From Thermoanaerobaculia bacterium (GTDB taxonomy: Bacteria; Acidobacteriota; Thermoanaerobaculia; UBA5066), in contig CAVRAY010000002.1 in NCBI GenBank assembly GCA_963719225.1, positions 192,001 through 256,000 of the forward strand: a DNA stretch of 64,000 nt, given 5' to 3'. A model generated the notes under the pieces. The model did not search any database, was not told the origin of the DNA, and was given only the letters and a program-made list of their open reading frames with translations. This document shows, piece by piece, positions 6,750-59,806 of this stretch. Made by a program: the position numbers and the translations under genes. The stretch's first letter is position 1; each line of letters begins with the position of its first letter.

Positions 6750-8195
6750 ATGCAAGTTCCCTTCCGCCGCACCGCCGGGGCGCTTCTCGGCCTCGCTCTT
6801 CTTGCGGTTCCGGCCCCGGGAAACGCCGCCTCGCCGGCCGGGGCCGACACGTCAAGCGCCTGGCTGGACTCCACGTCCGCACGCTGGAACGAAATCGCCG
6901 AGAAGATCTGGGGCTTCTCCGAGACGGCGCTCCAGGAGACGAAGTCGTCCGCTCTCCTCGCCGACACTCTCGAAAAGGAAGGCTTCAGCGTGACGCGCGG
7001 CGTCGCGGGAATGCCGACGGCGTTCGTGGCTTCAGCGGGAGCTGGCGCGCCCGTCATCGGGGTCCTCGCCGAGTACGACGCGCTGCCCGGCCTTTCACAG
7101 ACGGCAGGCGCGCCGAAGAAGTCGCCGCTCGCCTCCGCGCCAGCTCCCGGCCACGGGTGCGGTCACAACCTCCTGGGCACGGCGGCAGTCGCGGCCGCCG
7201 TCGCGGCGAACCGCACCCGCGTCGCGGGGAAGCTTCCCGGCACGATCCGCGTCTTCGGCACGCCGGCCGAAGAGCAGCTCCTCGGCAAGCCGTTCATGCT
7301 CAGGGACGGCTCTTTCGCGGGAACCGATGCCGTCCTCGCCTGGCACCCAGCGGACGCGAACTACGTGTGCACGAAGCCTTATCTCGCGATCACCGCACTC
7401 GACGTGGAGTTCTTCGGAAAGACGGCGCATGCCGCGATGAACCCCTGGCTCGGGCGGAGCGCGCTCGACGCCGTCGAGCTGTTCGACCACGCCCTCGCGC
7501 TCATGCGGGAGCACGTGCTCCCGACCGCGCGCCTCCATCGCGCGATCAAGAGTGGCGGCCTCGCGGCGAACATCATCCCGGACTATGCCCGCGTCCAGTG
7601 GTTCGTGCGGGACGAGAACGGAGAACGCGTGAACGAGATGGTCGGGCGCCTGAAGAAGGCAGCCGAGGGCGCGGGTCTCGCGACCGAGACGACGTCGAAG
7701 GTGAGCCTTCTCGCCTCGACGCGCGAGCCGCTCTTCAACGCCGAGCTCTCGAAGGTCCTCCAGAGACATCTCGCCCTCGTCGGGGCGCCGAAGTGGGATG
7801 CCGCCGATGTCGCGCTCGCGCGCGGTGTCCAGAAAGAGGTCGGCATTCCCGAGGCCGGCCTTTCGGACACGGTCCTCCCATATGGTCCCGGGCACGGGTC
7901 CGGGGCTTCGTCGGACGTGGGCGAGGTGAGCGCGGCATTGCCGGTCGCCGAGCTCGCGGTCGCGACGGGGGCCGTGGGCCAGCCGTGGCACCACTGGGCC
8001 GTGACGTCCTGCTCGGGGCACGCGCTCGGCCGAAAGGGCATGCTCGTCGCGGCCAAGGTCCTCGCCGCGACGATGACGGATCTCCTGGGCGATGCCGCGA
8101 CCGTCGCCGCCGCGAAGGCCGAGTTTCAGAAGGCGACCGCCGGCAAGCCCTACGTCAGCCCGCTCGCGAAGGACGCGGTGCCGAAGATCTACTGA
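6750..8195 (+). CDS. M20 amidohydrolase (AbgB-like), secreted
   Basis: EYDALPG, GHGCGHNLLG, GTPAEE and SSDVGEVS motifs; signal peptide. Confidence 0.9.
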   Translation: MQVPFRRTAGALLGLALLAVPAPGNAASPAGADTSSAWLDSTSARWNEIAEKIWGFSETALQETKSSALLADTLEKEGFSVTRGVAGMPTAFVASAGAGAPVIGVLAEYDALPGLSQTAGAPKKSPLASAPAPGHGCGHNLLGTAAVAAAVAANRTRVAGKLPGTIRVFGTPAEEQLLGKPFMLRDGSFAGTDAVLAWHPADANYVCTKPYLAITALDVEFFGKTAHAAMNPWLGRSALDAVELFDHALALMREHVLPTARLHRAIKSGGLAANIIPDYARVQWFVRDENGERVNEMVGRLKKAAEGAGLATETTSKVSLLASTREPLFNAELSKVLQRHLALVGAPKWDAADVALARGVQKEVGIPEAGLSDTVLPYGPGHGSGASSDVGEVSAALPVAELAVATGAVGQPWHHWAVTSCSGHALGRKGMLVAAKVLAATMTDLLGDAATVAAAKAEFQKATAGKPYVSPLAKDAVPKIY

Positions 8196-9364
8196 TCGCC
8201 GGGGGCGTCCACCGCGCGAAGCACGCCGTAGTCGACGAGCTTCCGGACGAGCTGCCGTCGCAGGACGAGCCCGTGGTCCTTCTTGATCGCCCTGAGCGCG
8301 TCGGGCACCTTCGAGCCGTCGAAGGCGGGAAGCGCCGGGAGGAGCACGGCGGGGGCATCGATGGGGTCGTAGGCGCTGTAGGTGGCCAGGCGAACGGTCC
8401 CATGTCCGACGCCAATGACGCTGAGGTTGCCGACCTCGAGGCGCTCCGGAAGTGCGTCGCTGGTCACCGCGTCGTAAGCAGCGCGTGCGAGCTGCGCGTG
8501 GAGAGCGACGGTCGCACCTCCGATGCGCTCCACGGCCTTCCACTCCAGGTTCCGGACGATCGCGTCGCATTCGCGGTAGAGCTCCTGCTCGCGTCCGGCC
8601 CAGCTTCCCCAGAGGGACCTGTACCTCTCGGGGCTTACGGTGCCGTCGATCTCGTCGCCCTTGACGGCTTCCGTCCGCCTTTGTGATGGCGGAAGTTTGA
8701 GCGGAAAGTTCACGCGGAGCGCTGCGTGGTCGAAACCGAGGGTGACGAGGCAGTGGATCGCGAGGTTTTCCTCGATGGCCGTCAGCAGCTCCCTGGCCGA
8801 GTCCCAGAACCGCTTCGCCGTGTCCCCGCGCTCGTGCTTGCAGAACCAGGTCATGCAGACGGAATTGCGATGACGCCAGATCCCGCATTCGCCGCCGATC
8901 CGGTCTTCGAGGTAATAGGGGCAGAGCATCGCCTCGCTGTGGCCGAAGACCCCGTCCCCGTGGTCGTACAGGAGGTTGTACGCCCCGCCGGCGCCGACCC
9001 AGAGCGGCGTCACGCCGACTTTCTTTCCGATCCTCTCCACGACGCGGGCCCGCCCTTCGGCCATGTCGGGTGACCCGTCCGCCAGGATCGCCCCGACGAG
9101 AAAGTTGTGAAGCTTCGGCAGGTACGTGCAGCACTTCGTCTTCGGGTTGAAGTAGACCGCGTCACGCTCTCCGTCCGCGCCGCCGGACACGGGCAGCATC
9201 GCGCAGTTCTCGCACGTGGCGTGCGGCTCGGAGGGGATCTTGCCCCCGAGCGCCGCCTCGAGCCAGCGCGCGTGGAGCGGCGCCAGGCCCTTGGCGGGAG
9301 CGTCGGCGATAAAAGGGAGCCGGACCATGGGAGCCCTGGGGCGTGTCACCTGGTCATTGCTCAC
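8189..9364 (-). CDS. Cys-cluster (YkgJ/CxxCxxCC-like) protein with putative C-terminal RRE/PqqD-like domain; candidate peptide maturase, copy 2
   Basis: CENC...KCC...CPYY...CGIWRHRNSVC...FC pattern; C-terminus FDGSKVPDAL...LVRKLVDYGVL; about 85% identical (manual count) to 10618-11796. Confidence 0.75.
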   Translation of the reverse strand: MSNDQVTRPRAPMVRLPFIADAPAKGLAPLHARWLEAALGGKIPSEPHATCENCAMLPVSGGADGERDAVYFNPKTKCCTYLPKLHNFLVGAILADGSPDMAEGRARVVERIGKKVGVTPLWVGAGGAYNLLYDHGDGVFGHSEAMLCPYYLEDRIGGECGIWRHRNSVCMTWFCKHERGDTAKRFWDSARELLTAIEENLAIHCLVTLGFDHAALRVNFPLKLPPSQRRTEAVKGDEIDGTVSPERYRSLWGSWAGREQELYRECDAIVRNLEWKAVERIGGATVALHAQLARAAYDAVTSDALPERLEVGNLSVIGVGHGTVRLATYSAYDPIDAPAVLLPALPAFDGSKVPDALRAIKKDHGLVLRRQLVRKLVDYGVLRAVDAPGDQ

Positions 9365-9372
9365 TAATAGAT

Positions 9373-9522
9373 CTAGGGGGAGGCCTTGTCGATATGCTTG
9401 GGGATCGAAAGATCACCGTGGTCGACCCTCCCCCCGCGGACCTTCCCGCCCTTGGCGGGCTTGACGTCGAGGTTCTTGGCCATTCTCTTTTGAGCCTTAG
9501 GTTTCTCCTTCGCGATTTTCAT
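9373..9522 (-). CDS. double-glycine precursor peptide P10 (core RVDHGDLSIPKHIDKASP, Hcp-like)
   Basis: MKIAKEKPKAQKRMAKNLDVKPAKGGKVRGG|RVDHGDLSIPKHIDKASP; RBS AAAGGAG. Confidence 0.88.
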   Translation of the reverse strand: MKIAKEKPKAQKRMAKNLDVKPAKGGKVRGGRVDHGDLSIPKHIDKASP

Positions 9523-9539
9523 GTCTCTACTCCTTTGAA

Positions 9540-9686
9540 TCAAAGCTTCTTGACGCCGCCGCCGGAGCCCCCCGGCAGTTTGTCCATGCCGCCGCGGACC
9601 GCCCCGCCCCTGGACGGCTTGACCTCGAGGTCCTTGACGGTCTTCTTTCGCGAAGCCTTCGGGTTCTTCTTCGCAACCTTCTTCAT
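9540..9686 (-). CDS. double-glycine precursor peptide P9 (core MDKLPGGSGGGVKKL)
   Basis: MKKVAKKNPKASRKKTVKDLEVKPSRGGAVRGG|MDKLPGGSGGGVKKL; RBS AAAGGAG. Confidence 0.88.
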   Translation of the reverse strand: MKKVAKKNPKASRKKTVKDLEVKPSRGGAVRGGMDKLPGGSGGGVKKL

Positions 9687-9910
9687 GTCCTCGCTCCTTT
9701 CTTCCTGTGTCGGTCGTGGCCTGGCTTCGGCCTTCGCTCGGCCGGAGCATCCTTGAACGGCGGCTCTTCCTCTGTCTTGGGGATCGGGGGACGTTCACCA
9801 AAGACCGTCTTCTGTGCAGCGCCCCCCTTGGGGTCGTTTCGGGGGACGAGGTCCCTGAGGGGTACGAACCCCGGCGACGGCTCCTTCCTGCGGCGCCTTG
9901 GCTTCGTCAT
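9683..9910 (-). CDS. second-type precursor-like peptide Q2 (LRDLVPRNDPKGG leader)
   Basis: MTKPRRRRKEPSPGFVPLRDLVPRNDPKGG|AAQKTVFGERPP...; paralog of 12170-12394; stop overlaps P9 start (ATGA). Confidence 0.75.
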   Translation of the reverse strand: MTKPRRRRKEPSPGFVPLRDLVPRNDPKGGAAQKTVFGERPPIPKTEEEPPFKDAPAERRPKPGHDRHRKKGART

Positions 9911-9917
9911 GCCGGCT

Positions 9918-9988
9918 TCGATGTCGACGGGCACGCGGAAGCTCTCGACGGCCTGGCCGCGGTCATCCGCGCCCGAAAGGAAGAACGA
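9918..9988 (-). repeat. diverged 71-bp copy of an internal segment of the VWA gene (6365-6441)
   Basis: 37/38 nt identical over the first block; encodes SFFLSGADDRGQAVESFRVPVDI versus SFFLAGDVTDDKGQAVESFRVPVDI. Confidence 0.9.
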
Positions 9989-10106
9989 TTTGGGTTTGGC
10001 CGTAGCCCCCACGGACTGTCCCGCCCTTCGCGGGCTTGACCCCGAGGTTCTTCGTCGCCTTGGTAGTCCTTGACTTGGAGGCCGTCTCCCTCGGGGTCTT
10101 TTTCAT
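9963..10106 (-). CDS. double-glycine precursor peptide P8 (core YGQTQIVLPFGRG)
   Basis: MKKTPRETASKSRTTKATKNLGVKPAKGGTVRGG|YGQTQIVLPFGRG; RBS AAAGGAG. Confidence 0.85.
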   Translation of the reverse strand: MKKTPRETASKSRTTKATKNLGVKPAKGGTVRGGYGQTQIVLPFGRG

Positions 10107-10160
10107 GTCGTTTCTCCTTTCTTCCTTTTTCGGCCGTGAACGGGCTCGAGGGACGGTCGA

Positions 10161-10289
10161 CTATTTGGGCCAGTATCTCCCCCCCAGGCCTCCGCGGACG
10201 GTCCCGCCCTTGGCGGGCTTGACCTCGAGGTTCTTGGCCGCCTTCTTCTGAGAAGCCTTCGTGGCGCTTTTCTTCGTGGTCTTCTTCAT
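10161..10289 (-). CDS. double-glycine precursor peptide P7 (core LGGRYWPK)
   Basis: MKKTTKKSATKASQKKAAKNLEVKPAKGGTVRGG|LGGRYWPK; RBS AAAGGAG. Confidence 0.88.
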   Translation of the reverse strand: MKKTTKKSATKASQKKAAKNLEVKPAKGGTVRGGLGGRYWPK

Positions 10290-10377
10290 GTCGTCTCTCC
10301 TTTCTTCCTGTTTCGCTCGTGACCCTGTTTCGAGTGCTTGACGAGCATCCCATGTCGGAGGTGCATCATCTCGGGAT

Positions 10378-10554
10378 TCACTTGACCTTCGTGTTTATCG
10401 ACGCTGCAAGACTCGTGCGAACCCCGAGAGCTTGGAGCTCCACAGCGGTGGGACCTCCGCGAACATCGCCGCTCTTGTCGCGCCTGACCTCGAGATCCTT
10501 GACCGCCTTCCTGTGTGTACCCTTCCCTTCGCCTTTCTTCGTGGTCTTCATCAT
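10378..10554 (-). CDS. double-glycine precursor peptide P6 (core PTAVELQALGVRTSLAASINTKVK)
   Basis: MMKTTKKGEGKGTHRKAVKDLEVRRDKSGDVRGG|PTAVELQ...; RBS GAGGAG. Confidence 0.86.
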   Translation of the reverse strand: MMKTTKKGEGKGTHRKAVKDLEVRRDKSGDVRGGPTAVELQALGVRTSLAASINTKVK

Positions 10555-10617
10555 GTCGTTTCTCCTCTTTTCCTGTTCCAGTCGTGACCCGGCTTCTGCC
10601 TTCTCATCGAGTTCTGG

Positions 10618-11796
10618 TTAGACGTGCTCGTCTTCGGGGGCGTCCACCGCGCGAAGAACGCCGTAGTCGACGAGCTTTCGGACGAGCTCGAGGCTCAGGA
10701 CGAGCCCGTGGTCCTTCTCGATCGCCCGAAGGGCGTCACGCACCTTCGAGCCGTCGAAGGCGGGAAGCGCCGGGAGGAGCGCGGCGGGCGCATCGGTCGG
10801 GTCGTAGGCGCTGTACGTGGCCAGGCGCACGGTCCCATGCCCGACGCCGATGACGTTGAGGTTGCCGATCTCGAGGCGCTCCGGAAGAGCGGAACTCGTC
10901 ACCGCCCGGTACGCGGCGCGTGCGAGCTGCGTGAGGAGAGCGACGGTCGCGCCGCCGATCCTCTCGACGTCCTTCCACTCCATGTCCCGGACGATCCCGT
11001 CGCTTTGGAGGTAGAGCTCCTTCTCGCGTCCGGCCCAGCTTCCCCAGAGGGCCTTGTACCTCTCGGGGCTCACCGTGCCGTCGAGCTCGTCCCCCTTCAC
11101 GGTTTCCGTCCGCTGAGACTTCGGAACCTTGAACGGGAAATTGGTCCGGAGCGCCGCGTCGTCGAAACCGAGGGTGACGAGGCAGTGGATCGCGAGGTTC
11201 TCCTCGACGGCCATCAGCAGCTCGTTGGCCGAGTCCCAGAACCGCTTCGCCGTGGCCCCTCGCTCGTGCTTGCAGAACCAGGTCATGCAGATGGAATTGC
11301 GGTGACGCCAGATCCCGCAGCCGCCGCCCATCCGGTCTTCGAGGTAGTAGGGGCAGCGCATCGCCTCGCTGTGGCCGAAGACCCCGTCACCGTGGTCGTA
11401 CATGAGGCCGTACGCTCCGCCGGCGCCAACGGAGAGCGGCGTCACGCCGACCTTTCTTCCGATCCTCTCCAGAACGCGCGCCTGTCCTTCGGCCATGTCG
11501 GGCGCCTCGTCTGCGAGGATCGCGCCGACGAGAAAGTTGTGAAGTCTCGGCAGGTAGGTGCAGCACTTCGTCTTGGGATTGAAGAAGACCGCGTCCCGGG
11601 CCCCGTCCGCGCCGCCGGGCACCGGGAGCATGACGCAGCTCTCGCATGTGGCGTGGGGCTCGGAGGGGATTTTTCCTCCGAGAGCCGCTTCGAGCCAGCG
11701 CGCATGGAGCGGCGCCAGGTCCTTGGCGGCAGCGCTGGCGATGAAAGGGAGCCGGACCATGGGAGCCCTGGGGCGTGTCACCTGCTCATTGCTCAC
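10618..11796 (-). CDS. Cys-cluster (YkgJ/CxxCxxCC-like) protein with putative C-terminal RRE/PqqD-like domain; candidate peptide maturase, copy 1
   Basis: CESC...KCC...CPYY...CGIWRHRNSIC...FC pattern; paralog of 8189-9364; GTG start just after precursor P5. Confidence 0.75.
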   Translation of the reverse strand: MSNEQVTRPRAPMVRLPFIASAAAKDLAPLHARWLEAALGGKIPSEPHATCESCVMLPVPGGADGARDAVFFNPKTKCCTYLPRLHNFLVGAILADEAPDMAEGQARVLERIGRKVGVTPLSVGAGGAYGLMYDHGDGVFGHSEAMRCPYYLEDRMGGGCGIWRHRNSICMTWFCKHERGATAKRFWDSANELLMAVEENLAIHCLVTLGFDDAALRTNFPFKVPKSQRTETVKGDELDGTVSPERYKALWGSWAGREKELYLQSDGIVRDMEWKDVERIGGATVALLTQLARAAYRAVTSSALPERLEIGNLNVIGVGHGTVRLATYSAYDPTDAPAALLPALPAFDGSKVRDALRAIEKDHGLVLSLELVRKLVDYGVLRAVDAPEDEHV

Positions 11797-11804
11797 TAAT
11801 AGAT

Positions 11805-11942
11805 CTAGGGGGAGGCCTTGTCGATATGCTTCGTGATGAGAAGGTCGCCTCCGCGAACCGCTCCGCCCTTGCCTGGCTTGACGTCGAGGTCCTTGGCCGC
11901 CTTCTTGGCCTTCGAGGGGGTCTTTTTAGTGGTCTTCTTCAT
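11805..11942 (-). CDS. double-glycine precursor peptide P5 (core DLLITKHIDKASP, Hcp-like)
   Basis: MKKTTKKTPSKAKKAAKDLDVKPGKGGAVRGG|DLLITKHIDKASP; RBS AAGGAG. Confidence 0.88.
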   Translation of the reverse strand: MKKTTKKTPSKAKKAAKDLDVKPGKGGAVRGGDLLITKHIDKASP

Positions 11943-11993
11943 GTCGTTTCTCCTTCCTTCCTGTTTCAGTCGTGACCCGAACATGAAACGCAA

Positions 11994-12173
11994 TTAGTGT
12001 TTCCGCCATACCTCAATGACCACTTCCTTAATGTGCTCTCCCTTGATGGGAATGATGTCTCCGAGGCCATGCCCTCCACGGACCGTCCCACCCTTGGCGG
12101 GCTTGACGTCGAGGTTCTTCAGTGCCCTCTTGCGCGAGGCCTTCGCGGCGCTTTTCTTCGTGGTCTTTTTCAT
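11994..12173 (-). CDS. double-glycine precursor peptide P4 (core HGLGDIIPIKGEHIKEVVIEVWRKH, Hcp-like)
   Basis: MKKTTKKSAAKASRKRALKNLDVKPAKGGTVRGG|HGLGDIIPIKGEHIKEVVIEVWRKH; RBS AAAGGAG. Confidence 0.88.
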   Translation of the reverse strand: MKKTTKKSAAKASRKRALKNLDVKPAKGGTVRGGHGLGDIIPIKGEHIKEVVIEVWRKH

Positions 12174-12394
12174 ATCGGTTCTCCTTTCTTCCTGCTTCGG
12201 TCGTGACCCGGCTTCTGCCTTCGTTCCGCCGGAACATCTTTAAGGGGGTGGTTATCTTCTGTCTCGAGGATCTGGGGACGTTCGCCGAAGACCGTCTTCC
12301 CCGCCGACCCCCCCTTGGGGTCGTTTCGGGGGACGAGGTCCCTGAGGGCGACGAACCCGGGCGGCGTCTTCGTCTTGCGGCGGCCCTTCTTCAT
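12170..12394 (-). CDS. second-type precursor-like peptide Q1 (LRDLVPRNDPKGG leader)
   Basis: MKKGRRKTKTPPGFVALRDLVPRNDPKGG|SAGKTVFGERPQ...; start overlaps the GT41 stop and its own stop overlaps the P4 start. Confidence 0.75.
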   Translation of the reverse strand: MKKGRRKTKTPPGFVALRDLVPRNDPKGGSAGKTVFGERPQILETEDNHPLKDVPAERRQKPGHDRSRKKGEPI

Positions 12395-13896
12395 CACGCC
12401 GCCACCGGTGCGGGAAAGCAACCGCGTTCCTCGCCGCTGCCTCGCGCCTCCGAGCGAGATCGCGCGCGCCAGAGCTGGAAATAGACATCCTCGATGCAGC
12501 GCGCGAGCCTCGCGCAGTCGGTGACGGGCGAGGCCTTCAGGCGCTTCCTCATCGTGCGCCGTAGCTCTTCGCGTCTTTCCGCTTTTGCCGCCGATCCCCA
12601 TCGAATGGCCGTCTCGACGTACCCGCGCACGTCCCGGCTGACGAACTTCCCGAGACCGGCGTTTTCCAGCAGCGACGCGCTGGTACGCGAGATCCACCGA
12701 TCCCCCGAGAACGCGACGACCGGAACGCCCTGCCAGATGGCTTCCGTGGTCGTCGTGCCCCCGTTGTACGGGAACGTGTCGAGGGCGAGGTCGATGGCGT
12801 CGTAGTTTCGGAGGAAGTCGTAGTGCTCCGCAGGTCCGAGCATCGCCACGCGCTCGGGCTCGATGCCGCGCCGCGTGAATCGCGCGAGTGTGTGCTTGCG
12901 ATTGCCGGGGTCTCCCAGAGCGGCGTTGGCCAGGAGAAAGCGGCTTCCGGGGCATCGCCTCAGGATCTCGGCCCACGCGGCGACGACGCCGTCGTTGAGC
13001 TTGTAGAGCGACGAGAGACTGCCGAACGTGACGAAGCCGTTCTTGAGCGACGGCGGTGGCGCGACATCGGGGACCGGGTAATTCACCGCGAACGTCAGAG
13101 ACGAGAGCGGGAGCTCGACGACCTGCTCTCCATACCAGTGCTTCTCGCCGTCACGAATGAGCCAACGATCGCCGATCAGCGCATCGAACACGGGCAACCC
13201 GGAGGTTCCGAAGATGTTGAACCACGCCACGACGACTGGAGCCAGCCTCGTCGCGAACAGCGGCAGCCGGCCCACCCGACTGTACTGGTTGAGATCCACG
13301 AGAACGTCGAGCCCCGCCCGGGCGATCCGGCACGCGGCCGCGCCGTTGTCGAGGCGCGAGATGTCGTGGACGTGCGCCCCGCTCGTACGCGCCCGGCGGC
13401 GCACGGCGGAAGGGCGCGACGCGTCGGAAAAAAGGTGGACCTCCACCCTGCCGGGGTCGTGGTGATCGATCAGCCCCCACACCGGCTTCATCCAGTTGTC
13501 TGCGTGGAAAAACGACGAGACGTAGCCGATCTTTAGTACTTTCCTGACCGGGCTGCCGACGACGATCGCCCTGGCGGGCGCGACGGCTCGGGCGCGAACC
13601 GCGTCGCCCAGCGCGCGGCGGACCTTCAGGATCGCCGCGTGGTCCAGGCGCGGGTCGAACGGGGCGATCGTCGCGAGGAGCCGCTGGGCTCGGATGTCCG
13701 TACGAATCCGGAGAGACGCCCGAAGATGCCGGGTCGCCCTCTCGACCTCACCGAGCGCGAAGGTCGCCCGGGCGAGGTAATAACGTGCGGCCGCAGAATC
13801 CGGACTCGCCCGGACGGCCGATTCGAAGACAGCGAGGCCGCTCGCGTACTTGCCGGCCGCGAGCATGCGACGGCCATTCGGGCAGCCGGCGATCAT
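12394..13896 (-). CDS. TPR + GT41 (OGT/SPINDLY-like) glycosyltransferase
   Basis: N-terminal TPR; LKIGYVSSFF, DVLVDL, RLAPVVVAW, VTFGS..LYKLN and DLALDTFPYNGGTTTTEAIWQGVPVV motifs; ATG 13896 overlaps P3 stop (TGATG). Confidence 0.88.
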   Translation of the reverse strand: MIAGCPNGRRMLAAGKYASGLAVFESAVRASPDSAAARYYLARATFALGEVERATRHLRASLRIRTDIRAQRLLATIAPFDPRLDHAAILKVRRALGDAVRARAVAPARAIVVGSPVRKVLKIGYVSSFFHADNWMKPVWGLIDHHDPGRVEVHLFSDASRPSAVRRRARTSGAHVHDISRLDNGAAACRIARAGLDVLVDLNQYSRVGRLPLFATRLAPVVVAWFNIFGTSGLPVFDALIGDRWLIRDGEKHWYGEQVVELPLSSLTFAVNYPVPDVAPPPSLKNGFVTFGSLSSLYKLNDGVVAAWAEILRRCPGSRFLLANAALGDPGNRKHTLARFTRRGIEPERVAMLGPAEHYDFLRNYDAIDLALDTFPYNGGTTTTEAIWQGVPVVAFSGDRWISRTSASLLENAGLGKFVSRDVRGYVETAIRWGSAAKAERREELRRTMRKRLKASPVTDCARLARCIEDVYFQLWRARSRSEARGSGEERGCFPAPVAA

Positions 13897-14069
13897 CAGG
13901 ACTTGAGCCGCGTGTCGTGACTCCACTGAGTGCTTTGAATTTCGATCCAATCCGTGTGTCGCACCTCTCCACCACGGACCGTCGCGCCCTTGGCGGGCTT
14001 GACCCGGAGGTTTCGGACGGGCTTCTTGTGAGCGGCCTTCGGCGCGGTTCTCTTGGTTGTTTTCTTCAT
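13896..14069 (-). CDS. double-glycine precursor peptide P3 (core EVRHTDWIEIQSTQWSHDTRLKS, Hcp-like)
   Basis: MKKTTKRTAPKAAHKKPVRNLRVKPAKGATVRGG|EVRHTDWIEIQSTQWSHDTRLKS; RBS AAAGGAAG. Confidence 0.88.
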   Translation of the reverse strand: MKKTTKRTAPKAAHKKPVRNLRVKPAKGATVRGGEVRHTDWIEIQSTQWSHDTRLKS

Positions 14070-14129: not shown

Positions 14130-14254
14130 TCATTCCTGGATCTTGGTTATCGGCTTTTTCCCCCCGCGGACGGTCCCGCCCTAGGCGGGCTGACCTCGAG
14201 GTTTCGGACGGCTTTCTTTGCCTTCGACGCGCTTTTCTTCGTGGTCTTGTTCAC
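14130..14254 (-). pseudogene. degenerate precursor P2 (1-nt deletion plus TAG in leader; restored core KKPITKIQE)
   Basis: GTG NKTTKKSASKAKKAVRNLEV, then gtc a-g ccc gcc TAG ggc ggg acc gtc cgc ggg ggg. As written it reads ...SPPRAGPSAGGKSR* (stop at 14147). Confidence 0.75.
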
Positions 14255-14261
14255 GTCGTCC

Positions 14262-14399
14262 TCATTTCGGCCGCCTATCTGGGGGACCGGGGGGGAATCC
14301 TCCGCGGACCGACCCGCCCATGACGGGCTTGACCTCGAGGTCCTTGACCGCTTTCTTGTTAGATGCCTTCGAGGGGTTCTTCTTCGCAGTCTTCTTCAT
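14262..14399 (-). CDS. double-glycine precursor peptide P1 (core FPPGPPDRRPK)
   Basis: MKKTAKKNPSKASNKKAVKDLEVKPVMGGSVRGG|FPPGPPDRRPK; RBS AAAGGAG; first gene after the sigma54 promoter. Confidence 0.88.
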   Translation of the reverse strand: MKKTAKKNPSKASNKKAVKDLEVKPVMGGSVRGGFPPGPPDRRPK

Positions 14400-14440: not shown

Positions 14441-14456
14441 AGCAAGGGCCATTCCA
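14441..14456 (-). promoter_or_regulatory. sigma54 (-24/-12) promoter of the precursor array
   Basis: TGGAATGGCCCTTGCT matches GG-N10-GC; about 40 nt upstream of the P1 ATG; adjacent bEBP gene. Confidence 0.8.
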
Positions 14457-14508: not shown

Positions 14509-14560
14509 TGTCTCGTTTCAATGCGATGTCGCATCGTTTCGAGTGACCCGTTCCGAGTCG
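14509..14560. promoter_or_regulatory. candidate upstream activator sequence for the bEBP
   Basis: Inverted repeat ATGCGA-TG-TCGCAT (14521-14534) flanked by repeated TCGTTTC, about 80-130 nt upstream of the expected start site. Confidence 0.45.
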
Positions 14561-14591: not shown

Positions 14592-15566
14592 TCACTTCGT
14601 GTCGCTGAGCTTCCTCTCGAGTCGGGCGCGGGAGATGCCGAGGGCCCGGGCTGCTCTCGTCTTGTTGCCGGAGAGCTCCCGGAGGACCCGGCGGATGTGG
14701 TTCTGCTCGACGGTTCGGAGACTCAGGTCGGTTGCGGGTGCCGGCCGCGCGGCGGAAGGCGGCGCTCCGGAGACGCCGTCGTTTTGGATCGGGACTGAGA
14801 GTTCCTCGATCACGCTGCCCTCGGTCATCGCAATGGCGGCGTGAATGACGAGGTCGAGCTCGCGCAGGTTCCCGGGCCAGTGGTACGAGAAGAGAGCATC
14901 CGCGGCCTTCTGTGAGAGGCCGGAGATGGCCCGTCCCTGCGCATGGGCGGCGCGGCGGATCGAGGCCGCGACGAGCTCGCGCAGGTCGTTCGGCCTCTCG
15001 CGCAGCGGGGGAAGGGTGACCGTGAGCCCCGCGAGCCTGTAGAAGAGGTCGCTCCGGAACTGCTCGGTGTTCGCGAACCGCGCGAGGGCGTGGCGCGTGG
15101 CCGAGATCAGCCGCACGTCCGCCGTGCGCAGGCGCTCGGAGCCGAGCCTCTCGAATTCGCCGTATTCGACCGCCCTGAGGATCTTCGCCTGGGCGAGCGG
15201 GCTCATGTCGGCGATCTCGTCGATGAAGAGGGTGCCGCCGTCGGCGATCTCGAACTTGCCGCGCACCTGCCGCTTCGCGTCCGTGAACGCGCCTTTCTCG
15301 TGGCCGAAGAGCTGGCTGTCGAGGAGCGTGTCGGAGAGGGCGGCGGCGTTGAAAGAGACGAAGGGGGCCGACGCCCTGAGAGAGGAGTTGTGGATGGCCT
15401 GGGCGAGGAGCGTCTTGCCGGTGCCTGACTCGCCGAGGAGGAGGAGCGGAAGCTCGGTCCGGCAGGCGGCGCGCGCCACGTCGAGGCACCGCCGCATCGC
15501 GGCGTCGGCTGTTCGGAAGCTCTCGAGCGTGAGGCGTGCCGCGTCGGGGAAGCTCTCCCGGGTCAC
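14592..15566 (-). CDS. sigma54-dependent transcriptional activator lacking an N-terminal sensory domain (AAA+ and Fis HTH only)
   Basis: GESGTGKT, LFGHEKGAFTDA, LFIDEI, FRSDLFYRL, WPGNLREL and GNKTRAARALGISR motifs; GTG overlaps HlyD stop. Confidence 0.9.
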   Translation of the reverse strand: MTRESFPDAARLTLESFRTADAAMRRCLDVARAACRTELPLLLLGESGTGKTLLAQAIHNSSLRASAPFVSFNAAALSDTLLDSQLFGHEKGAFTDAKRQVRGKFEIADGGTLFIDEIADMSPLAQAKILRAVEYGEFERLGSERLRTADVRLISATRHALARFANTEQFRSDLFYRLAGLTVTLPPLRERPNDLRELVAASIRRAAHAQGRAISGLSQKAADALFSYHWPGNLRELDLVIHAAIAMTEGSVIEELSVPIQNDGVSGAPPSAARPAPATDLSLRTVEQNHIRRVLRELSGNKTRAARALGISRARLERKLSDTK

Positions 15567-16765
15567 CGGATGTTCTCCCTCAGCTGCCGGAGCGGCTCGA
15601 AAGCGTACTCGACGAGAGTCCGACGGCCGACGACGATCCGCGCCATCCCGCGCATTCCCGCGAGGAGCGGTTTGCGCTCTCCGTCCGCCGCGACGGTTTG
15701 CTCGTCCAGGTCGACGAGGACGGGAAATGTCGCCGTCTCGCGGATCCCGACGCCGGAGGGGCTGGCCCACCGGACTGTCCCTCCGCGGACGCCATAGCGC
15801 TGGTACGGGAACGCCTCGAGGAGGAGACGAACGTTCTGGCCGGGGCGAATCCGGGCGAGGCCGCCCTGCGGAAGTGCCAGCTCGGCCTGAAGAGTTTCGG
15901 CGGAGCACGCGACCTCCGCGAGGACGTCGCCGTCACGGACCACAGCTCCTGCCCGCCTCGCCGTGACCCCGAGAACCGTGCCGTCGCAGGGAGAGTTGAC
16001 GGCCAGCTCGTTTCCAAGCCCGTCTCCGCCTGCGGAGGGCGCCTCGCCGCTGAGCGCCCCGATCCTGATTCTCGCCTGCGCGATCTTCTCTGCGAGGACC
16101 CGCTCCTCCTCGTGGAATTCCATCCCTTTGGCCGCCTCGGTGTCGCGGAGCTTTTCGATGGCGCTTCCGGTCGCGCCCCGCTCGGCCTGGAGCTGCTCGA
16201 GCTCCATCACGGCCTGGCTGTGCCGGATCTGGGCGTCGGAGCGCTCGTTCAGGCTCGCGAGCCCCTGGTCGGCGAGCTTCTTCGCGCGCTCGGACTGCTC
16301 CTTCGTCAGGACGAGCTGCTCCCTTTTCAGGGCCAGCATCCGATCGAGATAATCCGCGCGATCGGCGAGGCTCCGGGCCTCCTCGCGCCTCGCGCTCGCC
16401 TCGCTTTCGAATCTCCTCCGGGCATTGGAAAGGCTCTCGGCAAGGCCGCCGAGACCGGCTTCGAGCGCCTTCCGCTCGGACGCCCGGTCGGCGAATTCCT
16501 GTGACCGGATGGCGAAGAGCCTCGCCCCCCTGAGCACCGGGCGCCCCTCGACGGCGAGCACGTCCGTGACGGTTCCCCCGCGCGGAGCGCGGACCGGGTC
16601 GGTGCCGCGCACCGGCACCAGCGCGAACGGGGCAACGACCGTCTCCGGGACCTTGACGGCCACCGAGACGATCGCCGCGGCCACGAAGAGAGCGATCAGG
16701 ATCCAGGCGAGGCTCCGCGCGGCGAACGGCGGCGGGTCGCTCGGGAGAAACGGCGTCTCGTCCAT
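15563..16765 (-). CDS. HlyD-family membrane fusion protein
   Basis: N-terminal TM, coiled coil, AFPYQRYG and LLAGMRGMARIVVGRRTLVEYAFEPL motifs. Confidence 0.92.
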   Translation of the reverse strand: MDETPFLPSDPPPFAARSLAWILIALFVAAAIVSVAVKVPETVVAPFALVPVRGTDPVRAPRGGTVTDVLAVEGRPVLRGARLFAIRSQEFADRASERKALEAGLGGLAESLSNARRRFESEASARREEARSLADRADYLDRMLALKREQLVLTKEQSERAKKLADQGLASLNERSDAQIRHSQAVMELEQLQAERGATGSAIEKLRDTEAAKGMEFHEEERVLAEKIAQARIRIGALSGEAPSAGGDGLGNELAVNSPCDGTVLGVTARRAGAVVRDGDVLAEVACSAETLQAELALPQGGLARIRPGQNVRLLLEAFPYQRYGVRGGTVRWASPSGVGIRETATFPVLVDLDEQTVAADGERKPLLAGMRGMARIVVGRRTLVEYAFEPLRQLRENIR

Positions 16766-19700
16766 CTAGATCCCCAGCTGCTGGCTCGAGAGGTAGTAGT
16801 AGAGGCCCTGGCGGTCCATCAGCTCGTCGTGGATCCCCTGCTCGACCAGACGCCCCTTCTCCAGCACGAGGATGACGTCCGCGTCGCGGATGGTGCTGAG
16901 CCGGTGCGCGATCACGAATGACGTCCGGCCTTCCAGAAGGCGGTCGAGGTTCTCCTTGACCGCCCGTTCCGACTCGCTGTCCAGTGAGCTGGTCGCTTCG
17001 TCGAAGATCAGCACCGGGGGCCGGTTGTAGATGGCACGCGCGATGGCGATGCGCTGCTTCTGTCCGCCGGAAAGAGCGAGGCCCGACTCGCCGACCCGGG
17101 TGTCGTAGCCCAGGGGAAACCTCTCCACGAACTCGTGGGCGCTCGCGACGCGGGCAGCCCAGAGAACCCGGTCCATGTCGGGCTCGGCGTCGCCGAAGGC
17201 GATGTTCCGCGCGATCGTCTCGTCGAAGAGGTAGTTCTCCTGGAGGACGAAGCCGACGCGCCGCCGGAGGTCCCTGTAGTTCAGCTTTTCGAGGTCCACT
17301 CCGTCGAAGAGGATCGATCCCTCGGTCGCCTCCAGGAGGCCGGAGAGGAGCTTGGCGAGCGTCGTCTTGCCGGAGCCGCTTCGGCCGACGACCGCCACCA
17401 TCTTTCCGGGCTCCACGTCGAAGGTGAGACCCTCGAGGATCTTCGGCGACTCGGGCCCGCCGTACTGGAAGCCGACGTTCCTGAGCGAGACCTTTCCCGC
17501 GAGCGTTCGGACCGGAATGAGCGCGGACCGGTCGTCGCCCTGCTCGGGGGTCTGCTCGAAGACGTCGTTCAGGCGGTCGAGGAGGACCGTGCCGTACTGG
17601 AGGTGGTCCCAGGTCGCGAGCAGGATCCCGATCGGCGCGTTCGCGAGGGCCACGAGCGCGTTGAACGCGACTAGCCCGCCGATGGTGAGCGACCCGCGCA
17701 TCACCTGGAGCGCGCCCGCCCACAGAAAGAGGGCGACCGAGAGGAAGCTCACGGCCTGGACGGCGCCCTCGTAGGTCATCACGGTGAAGTCGGCGCGAAA
17801 CTGCTTGCGGGCGAGGCCGAGGAACCGTTCCAGCATCAGCTGCCTGAGTGAGCCTTCGGCTCCGAGCGACTTGACGGTCTCGATCCCCTTGATGGTGTCG
17901 ATCTGATGGGCCGAATACTTTCCGAACGCCTCCTCGAGCGTGTCGAAGACGGGACGGAGCTTCCGCCGCGAATACCTCATCAGGAGGGCGTAGAGGGGAA
18001 CGGTCGCGAGGAAGACTCCCGCGAGGAGGGGGCTGTAGACGAACATCAGGACCACGACTGCGGCGAGCTGGGAGAGGGCGGTCAGGGAGGAGACCCCGTA
18101 CTGGACCAGGAGCTCGCGCACCTGACGGAGGCCCATGAGACGGCGCTGGATGTCCCCCGTCTTCCGCGTCGAGAAGTAGGACATCGGAAGCGACAGGAGG
18201 CGCCGGGTGATGAAGTCGAGCGTCGCGGCGTCGATCCGGACTGCGGCGAAGCTCAACAGGTATCGCTGCAGCACCATCGCCAGGGTCGAGAAAACGAGGA
18301 CGCCTCCCATCCCGAGGAGAAGAATCCGGAGCAACCCCTCGTCGCGCTCGACGAGAACCCGGTCGACGATCACCTGGCTGAAGACCGGCAGCACCATCTG
18401 CAGGATGCTGACGATCAACGCCAGAGCGGCCGCCTTCGCGAGGAGAGCGGCGTGCGGCCGAAAGAAGCGGGTGAGCCACGCGAAGCTCGAGCGTCCCACC
18501 GGAGCCTTCTCGAACGCTTCCGTGTAGTCGAAGAGGGCAGCGTAACCCGTCCACTCCTTCTCGACCTCTGCGCGCGGCAGGAGCCGGAGCCCGACCCCAG
18601 GGTCGGCCAGGCGAACGTCCGCCGGGTTCGTGTCGTAAAGGACGACCCAGTGGTTGCCGCCCCAGTGAAGGATGGCGGGGAGCGGCATCTGGTCCAGGTG
18701 CCGCGCCGAGGCCTTGACGGAGCGCGCGGCGAGTCCCAGCTCCTCGGCTCCGCGGCAGATCGCCCGGAGGCTCGTGCCGTCGGTCGATGTGAAGAGGAGC
18801 TGCCGGATCCGCGCCAGGCTCACCGCGCGGCCGAAGTGGCGACAGACCATCGCCAGGGAAGCCGCGCCGCAGTCCATCTCGTCGATCTGCCGGATGAAGC
18901 GGAAACGGCGGATCCGCCGAGCCTTCTTGGTGAACCGACCGTCCTCCGTCGCGAAGGGAGCGGCGGGCTCCTCGCCCGCTGCTTCGTCCGCCCGGCCGCC
19001 GGCATCCTCGTCGACTTGGTCCGGACCCACCTCCTCCACCGCCGCCTCCGCGGGCAGGAGCTCGTCGGCGAAGTCGAGCGGAACCGTCGCCTCCTTTCGG
19101 TAGTCGTACTGGGCGATACGCCGGCCGATGGCCGCGCGGAACCCGGGATGCGCCTCGGTGACGGCCCGGAAGGCGGTCGGGTGCAGGCTCAGGAGCCGAC
19201 AGGGCGTGACGGCCTCGACTGTGGCCTTTCTCGGTTCTCCCGTGAACGCCGAGATCTCGCCGAAGACATCGCCTTTCCGGAGGTAGGCGATGTTTCGCAG
19301 GTGCCCGTCCTCCTCGGCGAAGGCGCGAAGCCTTCCTTCCTCGACGACGAAAAGAGGTCCTTCCCCGTCTCCCTGTCGGAACACGGTCTCCCCTGCGGCG
19401 ACGGCGATCGTCTCGAACCGGTGGAGGAGCCCGGCGAGGACCGCTGGCGGAAGCGTGGAGAACGGGGTGTAGAGACGGAAGAGGTTCTGGAGGCTCCGGT
19501 ACCGGCTGTGGAGCTCCAGGCAGGTCCGGATCTCGGGATCGCCGGAGAGAAGCTCGTCGAAGGCGCTTCGGTCGAGCCGGAGGACCGTCGCGGCGCTCGA
19601 CGCGCGCACCGTGGCCTGCCGCCTGGCGGAGTCGTCCAGGAGACCCATTTCGCCGAAGCTGTCCCCGGGACGAAGCACGCCGAGCGAAACCTCCTCGCCC

Positions 19701-19948
19701 CGCTCTCCCATCTTCACCGCACGGGCTTTCCCGGCCACGAGGACGAAGAAGGCGTCCGCGGGATCGCCCTCGCGAAGGATGACGGCGCCGAAGGGAAAGG
19801 AGACGGGGACGAACTTCCCGGTCACCGCGGCGCGAGACGCAGGCGAGAGGAACTTCAGGAGCGGCAGGTCGTCGAGGAGGGCCCGCGCCGCCTCCACCTC
19901 CGGCGGGAGGGACGACTTCGCCTTGCTCTTCAAGGCTTCCATAGCCAC
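16766..19948 (-). CDS. peptidase-containing ABC transporter with two cNMP-binding domains, C39 peptidase, TMD and NBD
   Basis: FGEMGLL..RQATV and FGEISAF..RKATV (cNMP); QIDEMDCGAASL, LHWGGNHWVV, LADP (intact C39 Cys/His/Asp); GRSGSGKT, LSGGQKQR, IFDEATS. Confidence 0.94.
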   Translation of the reverse strand: MAMEALKSKAKSSLPPEVEAARALLDDLPLLKFLSPASRAAVTGKFVPVSFPFGAVILREGDPADAFFVLVAGKARAVKMGERGEEVSLGVLRPGDSFGEMGLLDDSARRQATVRASSAATVLRLDRSAFDELLSGDPEIRTCLELHSRYRSLQNLFRLYTPFSTLPPAVLAGLLHRFETIAVAAGETVFRQGDGEGPLFVVEEGRLRAFAEEDGHLRNIAYLRKGDVFGEISAFTGEPRKATVEAVTPCRLLSLHPTAFRAVTEAHPGFRAAIGRRIAQYDYRKEATVPLDFADELLPAEAAVEEVGPDQVDEDAGGRADEAAGEEPAAPFATEDGRFTKKARRIRRFRFIRQIDEMDCGAASLAMVCRHFGRAVSLARIRQLLFTSTDGTSLRAICRGAEELGLAARSVKASARHLDQMPLPAILHWGGNHWVVLYDTNPADVRLADPGVGLRLLPRAEVEKEWTGYAALFDYTEAFEKAPVGRSSFAWLTRFFRPHAALLAKAAALALIVSILQMVLPVFSQVIVDRVLVERDEGLLRILLLGMGGVLVFSTLAMVLQRYLLSFAAVRIDAATLDFITRRLLSLPMSYFSTRKTGDIQRRLMGLRQVRELLVQYGVSSLTALSQLAAVVVLMFVYSPLLAGVFLATVPLYALLMRYSRRKLRPVFDTLEEAFGKYSAHQIDTIKGIETVKSLGAEGSLRQLMLERFLGLARKQFRADFTVMTYEGAVQAVSFLSVALFLWAGALQVMRGSLTIGGLVAFNALVALANAPIGILLATWDHLQYGTVLLDRLNDVFEQTPEQGDDRSALIPVRTLAGKVSLRNVGFQYGGPESPKILEGLTFDVEPGKMVAVVGRSGSGKTTLAKLLSGLLEATEGSILFDGVDLEKLNYRDLRRRVGFVLQENYLFDETIARNIAFGDAEPDMDRVLWAARVASAHEFVERFPLGYDTRVGESGLALSGGQKQRIAIARAIYNRPPVLIFDEATSSLDSESERAVKENLDRLLEGRTSFVIAHRLSTIRDADVILVLEKGRLVEQGIHDELMDRQGLYYYLSSQQLGI

Positions 19949-20928
19949 GTGACCCTGTTGTCGACCTCGCGCGCGACGAGGCCTTCGAGGAGGCTGGACT
20001 CCGCCTTTTCCTTTACCTCGGGATCGTCCGGCATCGGCGGAATCTTCGCGCGGAGCGAGACGAGCACGAACTCGTCGCCGACGCTCACCGGACCGACGAG
20101 CTCTCCCGGGCGCGCCGAGAGCAGGACGTCCCGGACCTCAGGCTCAGCCTCGTCGAGAAACTCCACGCCTTCCTCCGTGGCTTCGCCGATTTCCTCCGCC
20201 AGCCTTTCGAGGGCGACTCCCTCCTGTCGCACCGCCATCGCCGCCTCGCGCGCGGCGTCCTCGCCGGGAAGCCTCAGGACGCTGCAGTCGATGCGGGTCC
20301 AATCGGTGAGGTGCGCCTTGACCCGCGCCGCCAGCGCATCGGGAGTGAGCACCTCATCGCGAAACCGCTCGTACGAGAGCTCCAGGCGAGCGAAGACCTC
20401 CCGCCGCTCGACGAGCGTCCCGGTCGGGCCTGGTTCTTCGTCGGGAGCCTGCGTCCGTTCCTTCTCCCTTTCCCCGATCGCGGCCCGCCCCGCGAGCTGC
20501 CGCGCCAGACGCTCCAGCTCTCCGGAACACACGGCCTCGCCGAGGACGGCCAGCTCGACCTGGCGAGGATCCACCTGGGGCTTGGCCGGAAGGACGAAGT
20601 CCGGAAGGCGGTCGCGGAGGAGGCTGGCGTGAATCCAGTCGAGCCAGGTCTCCGCGTCGAGGCGCCAGCGCGCGAGCCAGCGTTCCAGCTCCTCCGCGGT
20701 GATGAGGTCCCGCTCGTACCGGAAGTCGTCCGCGGCCCCGTCGATCTCATCTTGAGGAATGACGGCTTCCGCGGCCGTGTCCGCAAAGGCGAGAAGAGCG
20801 AGGTTGTCGAGAGCCCGCTCCTCGATCTCCTTCCAGTCGCCCCGCAGCTCCGCAGCCAGGACGACGTCCTCCCACCGGAAGACCCGGCCACCCGCGCAAA
20901 ATACGTCCCGCCCGAAGAGATCCTGCAC
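19930..20928 (-). CDS. acidic PpiC/SurA-related (peptidyl-prolyl isomerase-like) protein, type I secretion/peptide maturation associated
   Basis: EIDGAADDFRYERDLITAEELERWL and LLSARPGELVGPV resemble PPIase-like partners of cNMP-HlyB/HlyD systems; very Glu/Asp-rich. Confidence 0.7.
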   Translation of the reverse strand: MQDLFGRDVFCAGGRVFRWEDVVLAAELRGDWKEIEERALDNLALLAFADTAAEAVIPQDEIDGAADDFRYERDLITAEELERWLARWRLDAETWLDWIHASLLRDRLPDFVLPAKPQVDPRQVELAVLGEAVCSGELERLARQLAGRAAIGEREKERTQAPDEEPGPTGTLVERREVFARLELSYERFRDEVLTPDALAARVKAHLTDWTRIDCSVLRLPGEDAAREAAMAVRQEGVALERLAEEIGEATEEGVEFLDEAEPEVRDVLLSARPGELVGPVSVGDEFVLVSLRAKIPPMPDDPEVKEKAESSLLEGLVAREVDNRVTWLWKP

Positions 20929-57987: not shown

Positions 57988-58014
57988 CGACGGCCGAAGG
58001 GCAATGATAGCACG

Positions 58015-59763: not shown

Positions 59764-59806
59764 CGACTTCTCACTTCCACGCGCGCCCGGGAGACCCCGG
59801 GGCGCT

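Follow-up and report, generated by a model that had tools for sequence, protein, structure and literature searches.

What do two paralogous genes do that each lie close behind a small peptide gene with a double-glycine (double-Gly) leader in the genome of a Thermoanaerobaculia bacterium? The pair is carried on the minus strand of contig CAVRAY010000002.1, within the 64,000-nt stretch that we analysed as a whole (contig positions 192,001 to 256,000; hereafter the window, numbered from its first letter). On the basis of sequence comparison and fold models, we put at roughly 0.75 the probability that the two proteins are leader-dependent maturases of ribosomally made peptides modified after translation (RiPPs). 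In the scheme that we propose, a C-terminal RiPP recognition element (RRE) would bind the double-Gly leader of the neighbouring peptides; the N-terminal cysteine domain would hold a metal centre, probably [4Fe-4S], use S-adenosylmethionine (SAM) and N-methylate lysines (Lys) of the cores in a leader-dependent manner; and a C39 exporter would then cut the leader after Gly-Gly and secrete the cores.

The paralogues, their predicted C-terminal fold and the peptide genes beside them

The motifs that the original prediction had read in both genes are present, including C51-x2-C54-x23-C78C79, C148PYY, C160GIWRHRNSxC170, C175 and the C-terminal FDG...DAL...LVRKLVDYGVL. The proteins are 85% identical across 391 aa, a search of the 4.75-Mb genome gave exactly these two copies, and the synonymous and nonsynonymous divergences between them (dS 0.32, dN 0.084, dN/dS 0.26) indicate purifying selection on both. 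Their spacing needed revision: the gap of 8 nt behind a precursor with the KHIDKASP motif holds for the longest open reading frames (ORFs; GTG at 9364 and 11796), but not for the probable downstream starts. Since the database entries P0001 and P0003 begin at the ATG at 9328 and 11760, and close relatives start at an MTRP/MTSP-like residue that corresponds to the GTG at 9349 and 11781, all inside the longest ORFs, the true gap is probably 23 or 44 nt. Around this junction, a stretch of about 88 nt comprising core end, spacer and enzyme start (9328-9415 against 11760-11846) differs by one base, whereas the two genes are unlike at 26% of their synonymous positions, which suggests gene conversion or functional constraint. 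At its other end, copy 1 overlaps an M20 amidohydrolase gene (6750-8195) tail to tail by 7 nt (8189-8195).

The eight-cysteine family to which both proteins belong is widespread and under selection, and it probably represents a RiPP maturase of a new type. Of 7995 candidates scored in a protein search, 170 matched, and none of the 120 matches listed carries a Pfam label. In the family alignment (94 of these matches plus copy 2, 95 rows), C51, C54, C78, C79, C148, C160, C170 and C175 are invariant, as are other residues including E46, M56, P83, W163, R166 and T172; K176 and R179 are also counted among the invariant positions. Scanning genomes yielded 264 relatives, and the 79 loci returned belong to Acidobacteriota, Myxococcota, Chloroflexota, Gemmatimonadota, Methylomirabilota, Pseudomonadota and further groups. 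Among the relatives with a title, those nearest to the pair are Thermoanaerobaculia (L001 and L002), and among kin the distribution is patchy, with the gene in 8 of 41 genomes.

The tail of about 85 residues likely adopts an RRE fold. In the model of copy 2 (predicted local distance difference test, pLDDT, 90.5; predicted template modelling score, pTM, 0.88), residues 304-389 fold into three strands followed by three helices. Compared against 48,161 chains, this segment matched TigE best (Z 7.8, root-mean-square deviation (rmsd) 3.2, 88 aligned), followed by MccB (Z 7.5, rmsd 2.9, 79 aligned), MibB (Z 6.7, rmsd 2.8, 79 aligned), PbtF (Z 6.5, rmsd 3.3, 76 aligned) and then ThcOx, TbtB, McbB, NisB and TbiB1, so that peptide-biosynthesis proteins make up 11 of the top 13 rows. 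The RRE-like tail postulated earlier therefore stands by modelled fold, but not by sequence profile: no PqqD or other RRE family of Pfam matches any of the 95 members at E<=0.1, and the NCBIfam RRE models match none at E<=1. Foldseek with the full model gave no match at E<=0.001, and the predicted complex of copy 2 with precursor 11805-11942, a 4Fe-4S cluster and SAM scored 0.19 against a mark of 0.32, which speaks neither for nor against the scheme. RREs take up the precursor as a fourth strand, as one report describes (10.1101/2023.10.30.564719).

The link between the enzyme and neighbouring precursors extends across phyla. Among the 76 homologues with sufficient flank, 28 have a precursor-like ORF ending at most 330 nt upstream, compared with 2 of 267 other genes of the same loci, a contrast that is optimistic because the classifier was tuned by eye on these loci; both control matches look like real precursors. 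Half of the 28 are double-Gly precursors, whose leaders, judged by eye, include Lys-rich, acidic and NHLP-like ones (TIGR03793, E 3e-10, below the cut-off). The other 14 have a hydrophobic leader ending in I-x-Q-P-x-G-G and then a tail of 18-48% Lys, a class whose count is partly circular because it was selected with a Lys filter. Within it, loci L049 (9823-9990), L055 and L068 encode, just upstream of the homologue, peptides with a signal of twin-arginine translocation (Tat) type, the I-x-Q-P-N-G-G motif and poly-Lys tails of 8-10 Lys, and these would be the simplest candidate substrates of the enzyme. The L049 peptide also resembles a Tat target. When whole loci were labelled by eye, leaving aside 3 of the 79 as short or interrupted, 37 of the 76 rows were double-Gly, 14 Lys-tail and 25 without precursor; the homologues do not generally lack precursor neighbours, though these 25 have none locally. 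A quick tree did not join the Lys-tail group in one supported clade.

In three proteins (P0075, P0235 and P0082) a leader and an Hcp-like core are fused in frame directly after the RRE. All three come from one assembly source, but the 62% identity between P0075 and P0082 speaks for a fusion that has been maintained. A fourth protein, P0006, has a leader fused at its N-terminus and a broken C-terminus, perhaps through a frameshift or an assembly error.

Cores derived from Hcp

Many of the cores behind these leaders originate from Hcp, the tube protein of the type VI secretion system (T6SS). Precursor 9373-9522 matches the Hcp family PF05638 at E 0.0018, and the cores of both KHIDKASP precursors plus two others are Hcp fragments, that is, 4 of the 9 cores of the window. 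The window matches lie at positions 36-76 of the Hcp profile with stops inside, and do not represent a full-length Hcp domain in a T6SS cluster. Of the 90 cores with at least 8 residues (three shorter ones were dropped), 30 scored p<=0.005 relative to shuffles against a profile built on 27 full-length Hcps, and 2 did so against the reversed profile. By source, the Hcp-like cores number 17 of 61 in loci found through the enzyme alone (2 reversed), 4 of 9 in the window (0 reversed) and 9 of 20 in loci chosen for Hcp. The same holds for 113 database relatives of the precursors, of which 101 could be parsed: 36 of their 89 unique cores match Hcp, none the reversed profile. Related cores tile 144 of the 157 profile columns, with columns 46-77 inflated by the Hcp-like cores in the query, and several short leader-core proteins are labelled Hcp by JGI. 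Hcp pieces also follow NHLP-type leaders (L047, 9524-9898; L053, 9443-9832) and thus stand behind at least three leader types. No leader joined to a full-length Hcp turned up among longer proteins (2 matches of 7993 scored), a negative that is weak as evidence.

In a metagenome scan, L179 and L190 proved to encode T6SS Hcps next to TssC; to these Hcps the core of 9373 is identical at 15-16 of 18 positions (16 for L190), 8 of them forced by the search pattern. At the DNA level, this core and the L179 Hcp share 63 of 92 positions, and the likeness continues past the stop. Because it runs beyond the stop in both KHIDKASP genes, these genes hold longer Hcp pieces that stop codons have cut short; in relatives L167, L173 and L175, six further residues of the piece are retained. 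The stretches 9328-9415 and 11760-11846 hold four stop codons within 11 codons of the Hcp frame. Likeness past the stop was rejected as a general rule, being seen in 2 of 30 genes, both of the window.

Recent capture of the cores from the hcp genes of the same genome was likewise rejected: the matches listed contain none at the DNA level, and each core shares 5-8 identities. The T6SS cluster of this genome lies on another contig (G000:C1:3140000-3167000, L126), with TssK, TssL, TssM, TssA, TssG and two Hcps; TssC is matched there by several pieces in shifted frames, through decay or sequencing error. Genomes G029 and G039 gave 13 and 7 short Hcp matches, and no full Hcp or TssC was found in them. 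One case, observed in the window, suggests an ongoing capture of DNA pieces behind leaders: a copy of part of the nearby VWA-domain gene overlaps, in a different reading frame, with the end of core 9963-10106, and its protein likeness extends to about 24 codons. For the non-Hcp cores, the scans gave no core match to other families in 35 (Pfam) and 25 (NCBIfam) proteins. Some cores (L005 11160-11363, L118 7405-7590, window 10378-10554) seem to combine an Hcp piece with motifs that we take to be those of pilin-like DUF1559 or Flp proteins, an assumption unsupported by these scans.

What the cysteine domain may do

By sequence profile, the enzyme family is a distant member of the YkgJ/CxxCxxCC superfamily, in agreement with the resemblance first noticed in the two ORFs. 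PF03692 matches 24 of the 95 members weakly (best E 0.0033), a profile of 23 YkgJ domains matches 91 of 95 at pairwise p<1e-3 with a reversed control of 0 of 95, and the named Atlas neighbours of the family are PF03692 clusters. The hhalign comparison of this profile with the enzyme family (local E 5.7e-4, probability 29%) aligned CC, C148, C160, R166 and C170. The window proteins themselves gave no PF03692 match at E<=1 and nothing better than E 0.23 in Pfam and NCBIfam scans; a PDB sequence search gave none for the protein and, with the profile, only a Clp protease at E 0.6. For a separate model of the N-terminal domain (residues 26-218, pLDDT 89), VIA was the best match (Z 4.0) in a fold search limited to listed families; the matches were helix-only, none at Z>=5 and none viral. 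Radical SAM enzymes carry a CX3CX2C motif, which is absent from the sequence, and the Radical_SAM profile matches none of the 95 members.

The further likeness to FliB, the flagellin lysine methylase, held in part. YkgJ and FliB-like domains are related at an hhalign probability of 96.6%, and the family therefore shares the superfamily of FliB by way of YkgJ, yet it is not a FliB, since no member matches the FliB hidden Markov model. As PMC8598068 describes it, FliB has eight conserved cysteines and one [4Fe-4S] cluster, methylates Lys with SAM, and does so at many Lys without a sequence consensus.

Which chemistry would such a domain perform? Our analysis tentatively favours an Fe-S/SAM-dependent Lys N-methyltransferase over any other single assignment, because FliB, the one characterised relative found, methylates Lys, and because Lys is common to nearly all partners. 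Lys occurs in 89 of 93 double-Gly cores, so that 4 lack it where 13 would be expected to, and lies within the last four residues in 56 of 93 compared with 34 expected; counting the cores that lack each residue gave no shared pattern other than Lys.

Several results weigh against methylation, or against leader-dependent maturation altogether: (i) no member of the family matches the FliB model NF038110 at E<=1, two direct hhalign comparisons with FliB-like domains gave probabilities of 1.4% and 0.2%, the FliB-like profile matches 3 of 95 members, and the spacing C-x2-C-x23-CC is unlike the CX4CX3CC given for FliB (PMC8598068). (ii) FliB is the sole characterised member of the superfamily found in the literature searched, which leaves room for other chemistries. 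(iii) A net gain of Lys in the 67 Hcp-like cores was rejected, with 148 Lys observed and 145 expected over 1162 aligned residues, four columns leaning to Lys; the circularity in the Lys-tail count has been mentioned. (iv) All RRE-like Z values lie below 8, and the same tail fold occurs in the lysine methyltransferase PKMT2 (Z 6.0), the methyltransferase Rv2067c (Z 4.5) and ribosomal oxygenases. (v) A third of the homologue rows (25 of 76) have no precursor in their own locus, and a C39 domain is nearby in 17 of 79 loci.

These points bear differently on three alternatives. The first keeps the leader-dependent maturase but gives it a different reaction (hydroxylation, aminocarboxypropyl transfer, a cross-link or a mass-neutral change), whether at Lys or elsewhere in the core; it is somewhat unlikely, but fits the same RRE fold and genomic context. 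It would account for the missing Lys gain and for the 23-residue spacer, the conserved TWFCKHxRG block and the W-rich middle domain, none of which resembles FliB; FliB itself also yields methylthioadenosine (MTA), in which its authors see a possible radical route (PMC8598068). What this alternative leaves aside is that the cores share Lys as their only residue pattern, and that the poly-Lys tails of L049, L055 and L068 offer few other targets.

We consider it improbable that the proteins are non-catalytic escorts, Zn-stabilised leader-binding chaperones or sensors that pass aggregation-prone beta-strand peptides to the exporter or to other enzymes. Eight cysteines could bind two Zn, the cores correspond to strand pieces of Hcp and vary widely in sequence, and other enzymes are present in clusters (the GT41 protein of the window; two ApyD-like B12 radical SAM genes in L118); however, the invariant non-cysteine residues listed above would seem to form an active site, and in many loci the gene is accompanied by one peptide gene and by neither an exporter nor another enzyme.

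Just as doubtful is a winged-helix tail that recognises a folded protein, with peptide genes as frequent neighbours only: PKMT2 and Rv2067c, the rows without a local precursor, and the genomes of five stand-alone homologues, four of which gave no clear gene for a leader plus Hcp core (three gave only full-length Hcp or weak partial matches, one none), would suit it, but it is opposed by the excess of upstream precursors, by at least three unrelated leader types (Lys-rich, acidic, NHLP-like) ahead of the gene, by the in-frame enzyme-precursor fusions and by the stand-alone homologue of L203, whose genome holds a leader plus Hcp-core gene elsewhere.

The operon and its place among known systems

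In the window, the two candidate maturases share their strand with nine precursors that have a Lys-rich double-Gly leader, two variant ORFs, one decayed leader, the TPR-GT41 gene, an activator, HlyD, the exporter and a PpiC-like gene, so that Gly-Gly leader, C39-ABC transporter and HlyD all occur in one cluster (see table). Motifs that we take to be the catalytic Cys/His/Asp of a C39 peptidase are visible in the exporter. With the consensus as we assume it, 2 of the 7 related loci tested have a similar sigma-54-type box behind the activator, at a background of 0.5% per 100 nt; scans for sigma-70 promoters and terminators stayed at chance level. About 65 nt upstream of the box in the window lies a 14-bp inverted repeat (ATGCGA-N2-TCGCAT, 14520-14533), a possible activator site.

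The variant ORFs, in which the L.DL.P...GG...FG pattern precedes a basic tail, recur in L001, L024, L059 and L118, in several lineages and with no family match, and may be decoys or regulators. In L118, Hcp-core precursors and the homologue are separated by two ApyD-like B12 radical SAM genes (7974-13010), which score 677 and 682 bits against a cut-off of 750. The Chloroflexota homologues of L009, L014 and L031 have an EcsC-family gene as their tail-to-tail neighbour and lack a precursor nearby. Farther along the window, positions 58001-60000 have an AT skew of -0.27, as strong as that of the precursor array; a search of the whole genome for leaders gave no match in this segment.

Table. Features of the candidate maturation operon, in window coordinates
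Feature	Position	Strand	Remarks
Candidate maturase, copy 1	8189..9364	minus	Longest ORF, 391 aa; probable start 9349 or 9328; 8-Cys YkgJ-like domain, helical middle, predicted C-terminal RRE fold
Double-Gly precursor	9373..9522	minus	Core is an Hcp piece, profile columns 46-63; Hcp likeness runs past stop
Double-Gly precursor, Gly-rich core	9540..9686	minus	Hcp match p=0.02 only
Variant small ORF, L.DL.P...GG...FG type	9683..9910	minus	Conserved companion of these clusters
52-nt copy (88%) of window 6365-6416 inside VWA-domain gene	9918..9969		DNA match
Double-Gly precursor	9963..10106	minus	Core end overlaps copied piece of nearby VWA gene
Double-Gly precursor, 8-residue core	10161..10289	minus	
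Double-Gly precursor	10378..10554	minus	Core not Hcp-like
Candidate maturase, copy 2	10618..11796	minus	Longest ORF, 392 aa; probable start 11781 or 11760
Predicted RRE domain of copy 2 (residues 304-389)	10630..10887	minus	Fold model; equivalent in copy 1 at about 8195-8452
Eight-cysteine domain of copy 2 (C51 to C175)	11272..11646	minus	Distant PF03692/YkgJ relative
Double-Gly precursor	11805..11942	minus	Core is an Hcp piece, columns 51-63; Hcp likeness runs past stop
Double-Gly precursor	11994..12173	minus	Core holds an Hcp piece, columns 71-82
Second variant small ORF, L.DL.P...GG...FG type	12170..12394	minus	
TPR + GT41 glycosyltransferase	12394..13896	minus	Start overlaps stop of precursor 13896-14069
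Double-Gly precursor	13896..14069	minus	Core is an Hcp piece, columns 17-32
Pseudo-precursor	14147..14254	minus	Decayed, frameshifted leader copy
First double-Gly precursor of array, Pro-rich core	14262..14399	minus	
Sigma-54-type -24/-12 box	14442..14456	minus	57 nt before first precursor; consensus as assumed by us
Sigma-54-dependent activator (AAA + Fis HTH)	14592..15578	minus	Start approximate
HlyD-family adaptor	15563..16765	minus	
Peptidase-containing ABC exporter (2 cNMP domains + C39 + ABC)	16766..19948	minus	
PpiC-like protein	19930..20928	minus	Weak match to TIGR04500, putative peptide maturation protein

A literature search outside whose reach lay most subscription journals and bioRxiv supplements found no paper joining the YkgJ superfamily to RiPPs, or Hcp to leader peptides. 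PF03692, YkgJ and FliB do not occur in the text and 10 supplementary files of the RRE-Finder paper (PMC7470986; two scanned files were not searchable), and a term search of PMC12452194 gave no match. RRE-fused maturases and double-Gly export have precedents; what is new is the catalytic domain, together with the cores derived from Hcp. Should the proposed leader-dependent maturation be correct, a new catalytic superfamily would join RiPP chemistry, the large and almost unstudied YkgJ/CxxCxxCC family would gain a defined substrate in the form of short peptides readable by mass spectrometry, and the way in which FliB-type Fe-S enzymes work would become directly testable. A leader-directed enzyme that tolerates very varied cores would also be a tool for peptide engineering.

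Exported peptides that tile nearly all of Hcp suggest an interference with type VI secretion, or a signalling about it, that has gone unrecognised. The fullest version of this idea is a long shot: soil bacteria of several phyla would keep a growing exported library of Hcp-derived peptides, the enzyme would methylate their Lys in a leader-dependent way, and the peptides would, as strand mimics, poison the assembly of T6SS tubes or related contractile tails in neighbours, or sense it.

Compared with systems already described, the locus of the window combines familiar parts with parts of its own: (i) With FliB (NF038110; PMC8598068), the enzymes have in common eight conserved cysteines in an N-terminal YkgJ-type domain and a similar length; FliB acts on Lys-bearing substrates in the cytosol before export, as the window enzymes would. 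They differ in the missing model match and the cysteine spacing set out above, in the predicted C-terminal RRE fold, and in their neighbours, which are small peptide genes and an exporter instead of flagellin. (ii) With YkgJ/CxxCxxCC proteins (PF03692), the CC, CP, C-x-I and R..C positions align, whereas the 23-residue spacer in the first motif and about 200 extra residues, with the helical domain and the RRE, set the window enzymes apart. (iii) Like the RRE-dependent RiPP maturases (TigE, MccB, MibB/NisB, PbtF, ThcOx, TbiB1; ApyD, in 10.1101/2023.10.30.564719), they would join a three-strand, three-helix recognition fold to a catalytic domain, encoded beside precursor genes; in contrast, their catalytic domain comes from a superfamily not found in RiPP pathways in the literature searched, and their RRE is C-terminal and missed by the Pfam models tried. 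(iv) The cores align without gaps to the T6SS tube protein Hcp/TssD (PF05638, TIGR03344), one of them with 16 of 18 residues identical to the Hcp of the L190 T6SS locus, but are pieces of 13-30 residues behind an export leader, located outside any T6SS cluster and present also in two genomes (G029 and G039) that gave neither a full Hcp nor TssC. (v) Finally, the double-Gly leader peptides with peptidase-containing ABC exporters (the NHLP cassette TIGR03794/03796; class II bacteriocins) share with the window the Gly-Gly leader, C39-ABC and HlyD, and constant leaders with variable cores, while the window exporter differs by its two cNMP domains and its PpiC-like partner, the window leaders are Lys-rich, and many of the cores are pieces of the structural protein Hcp.

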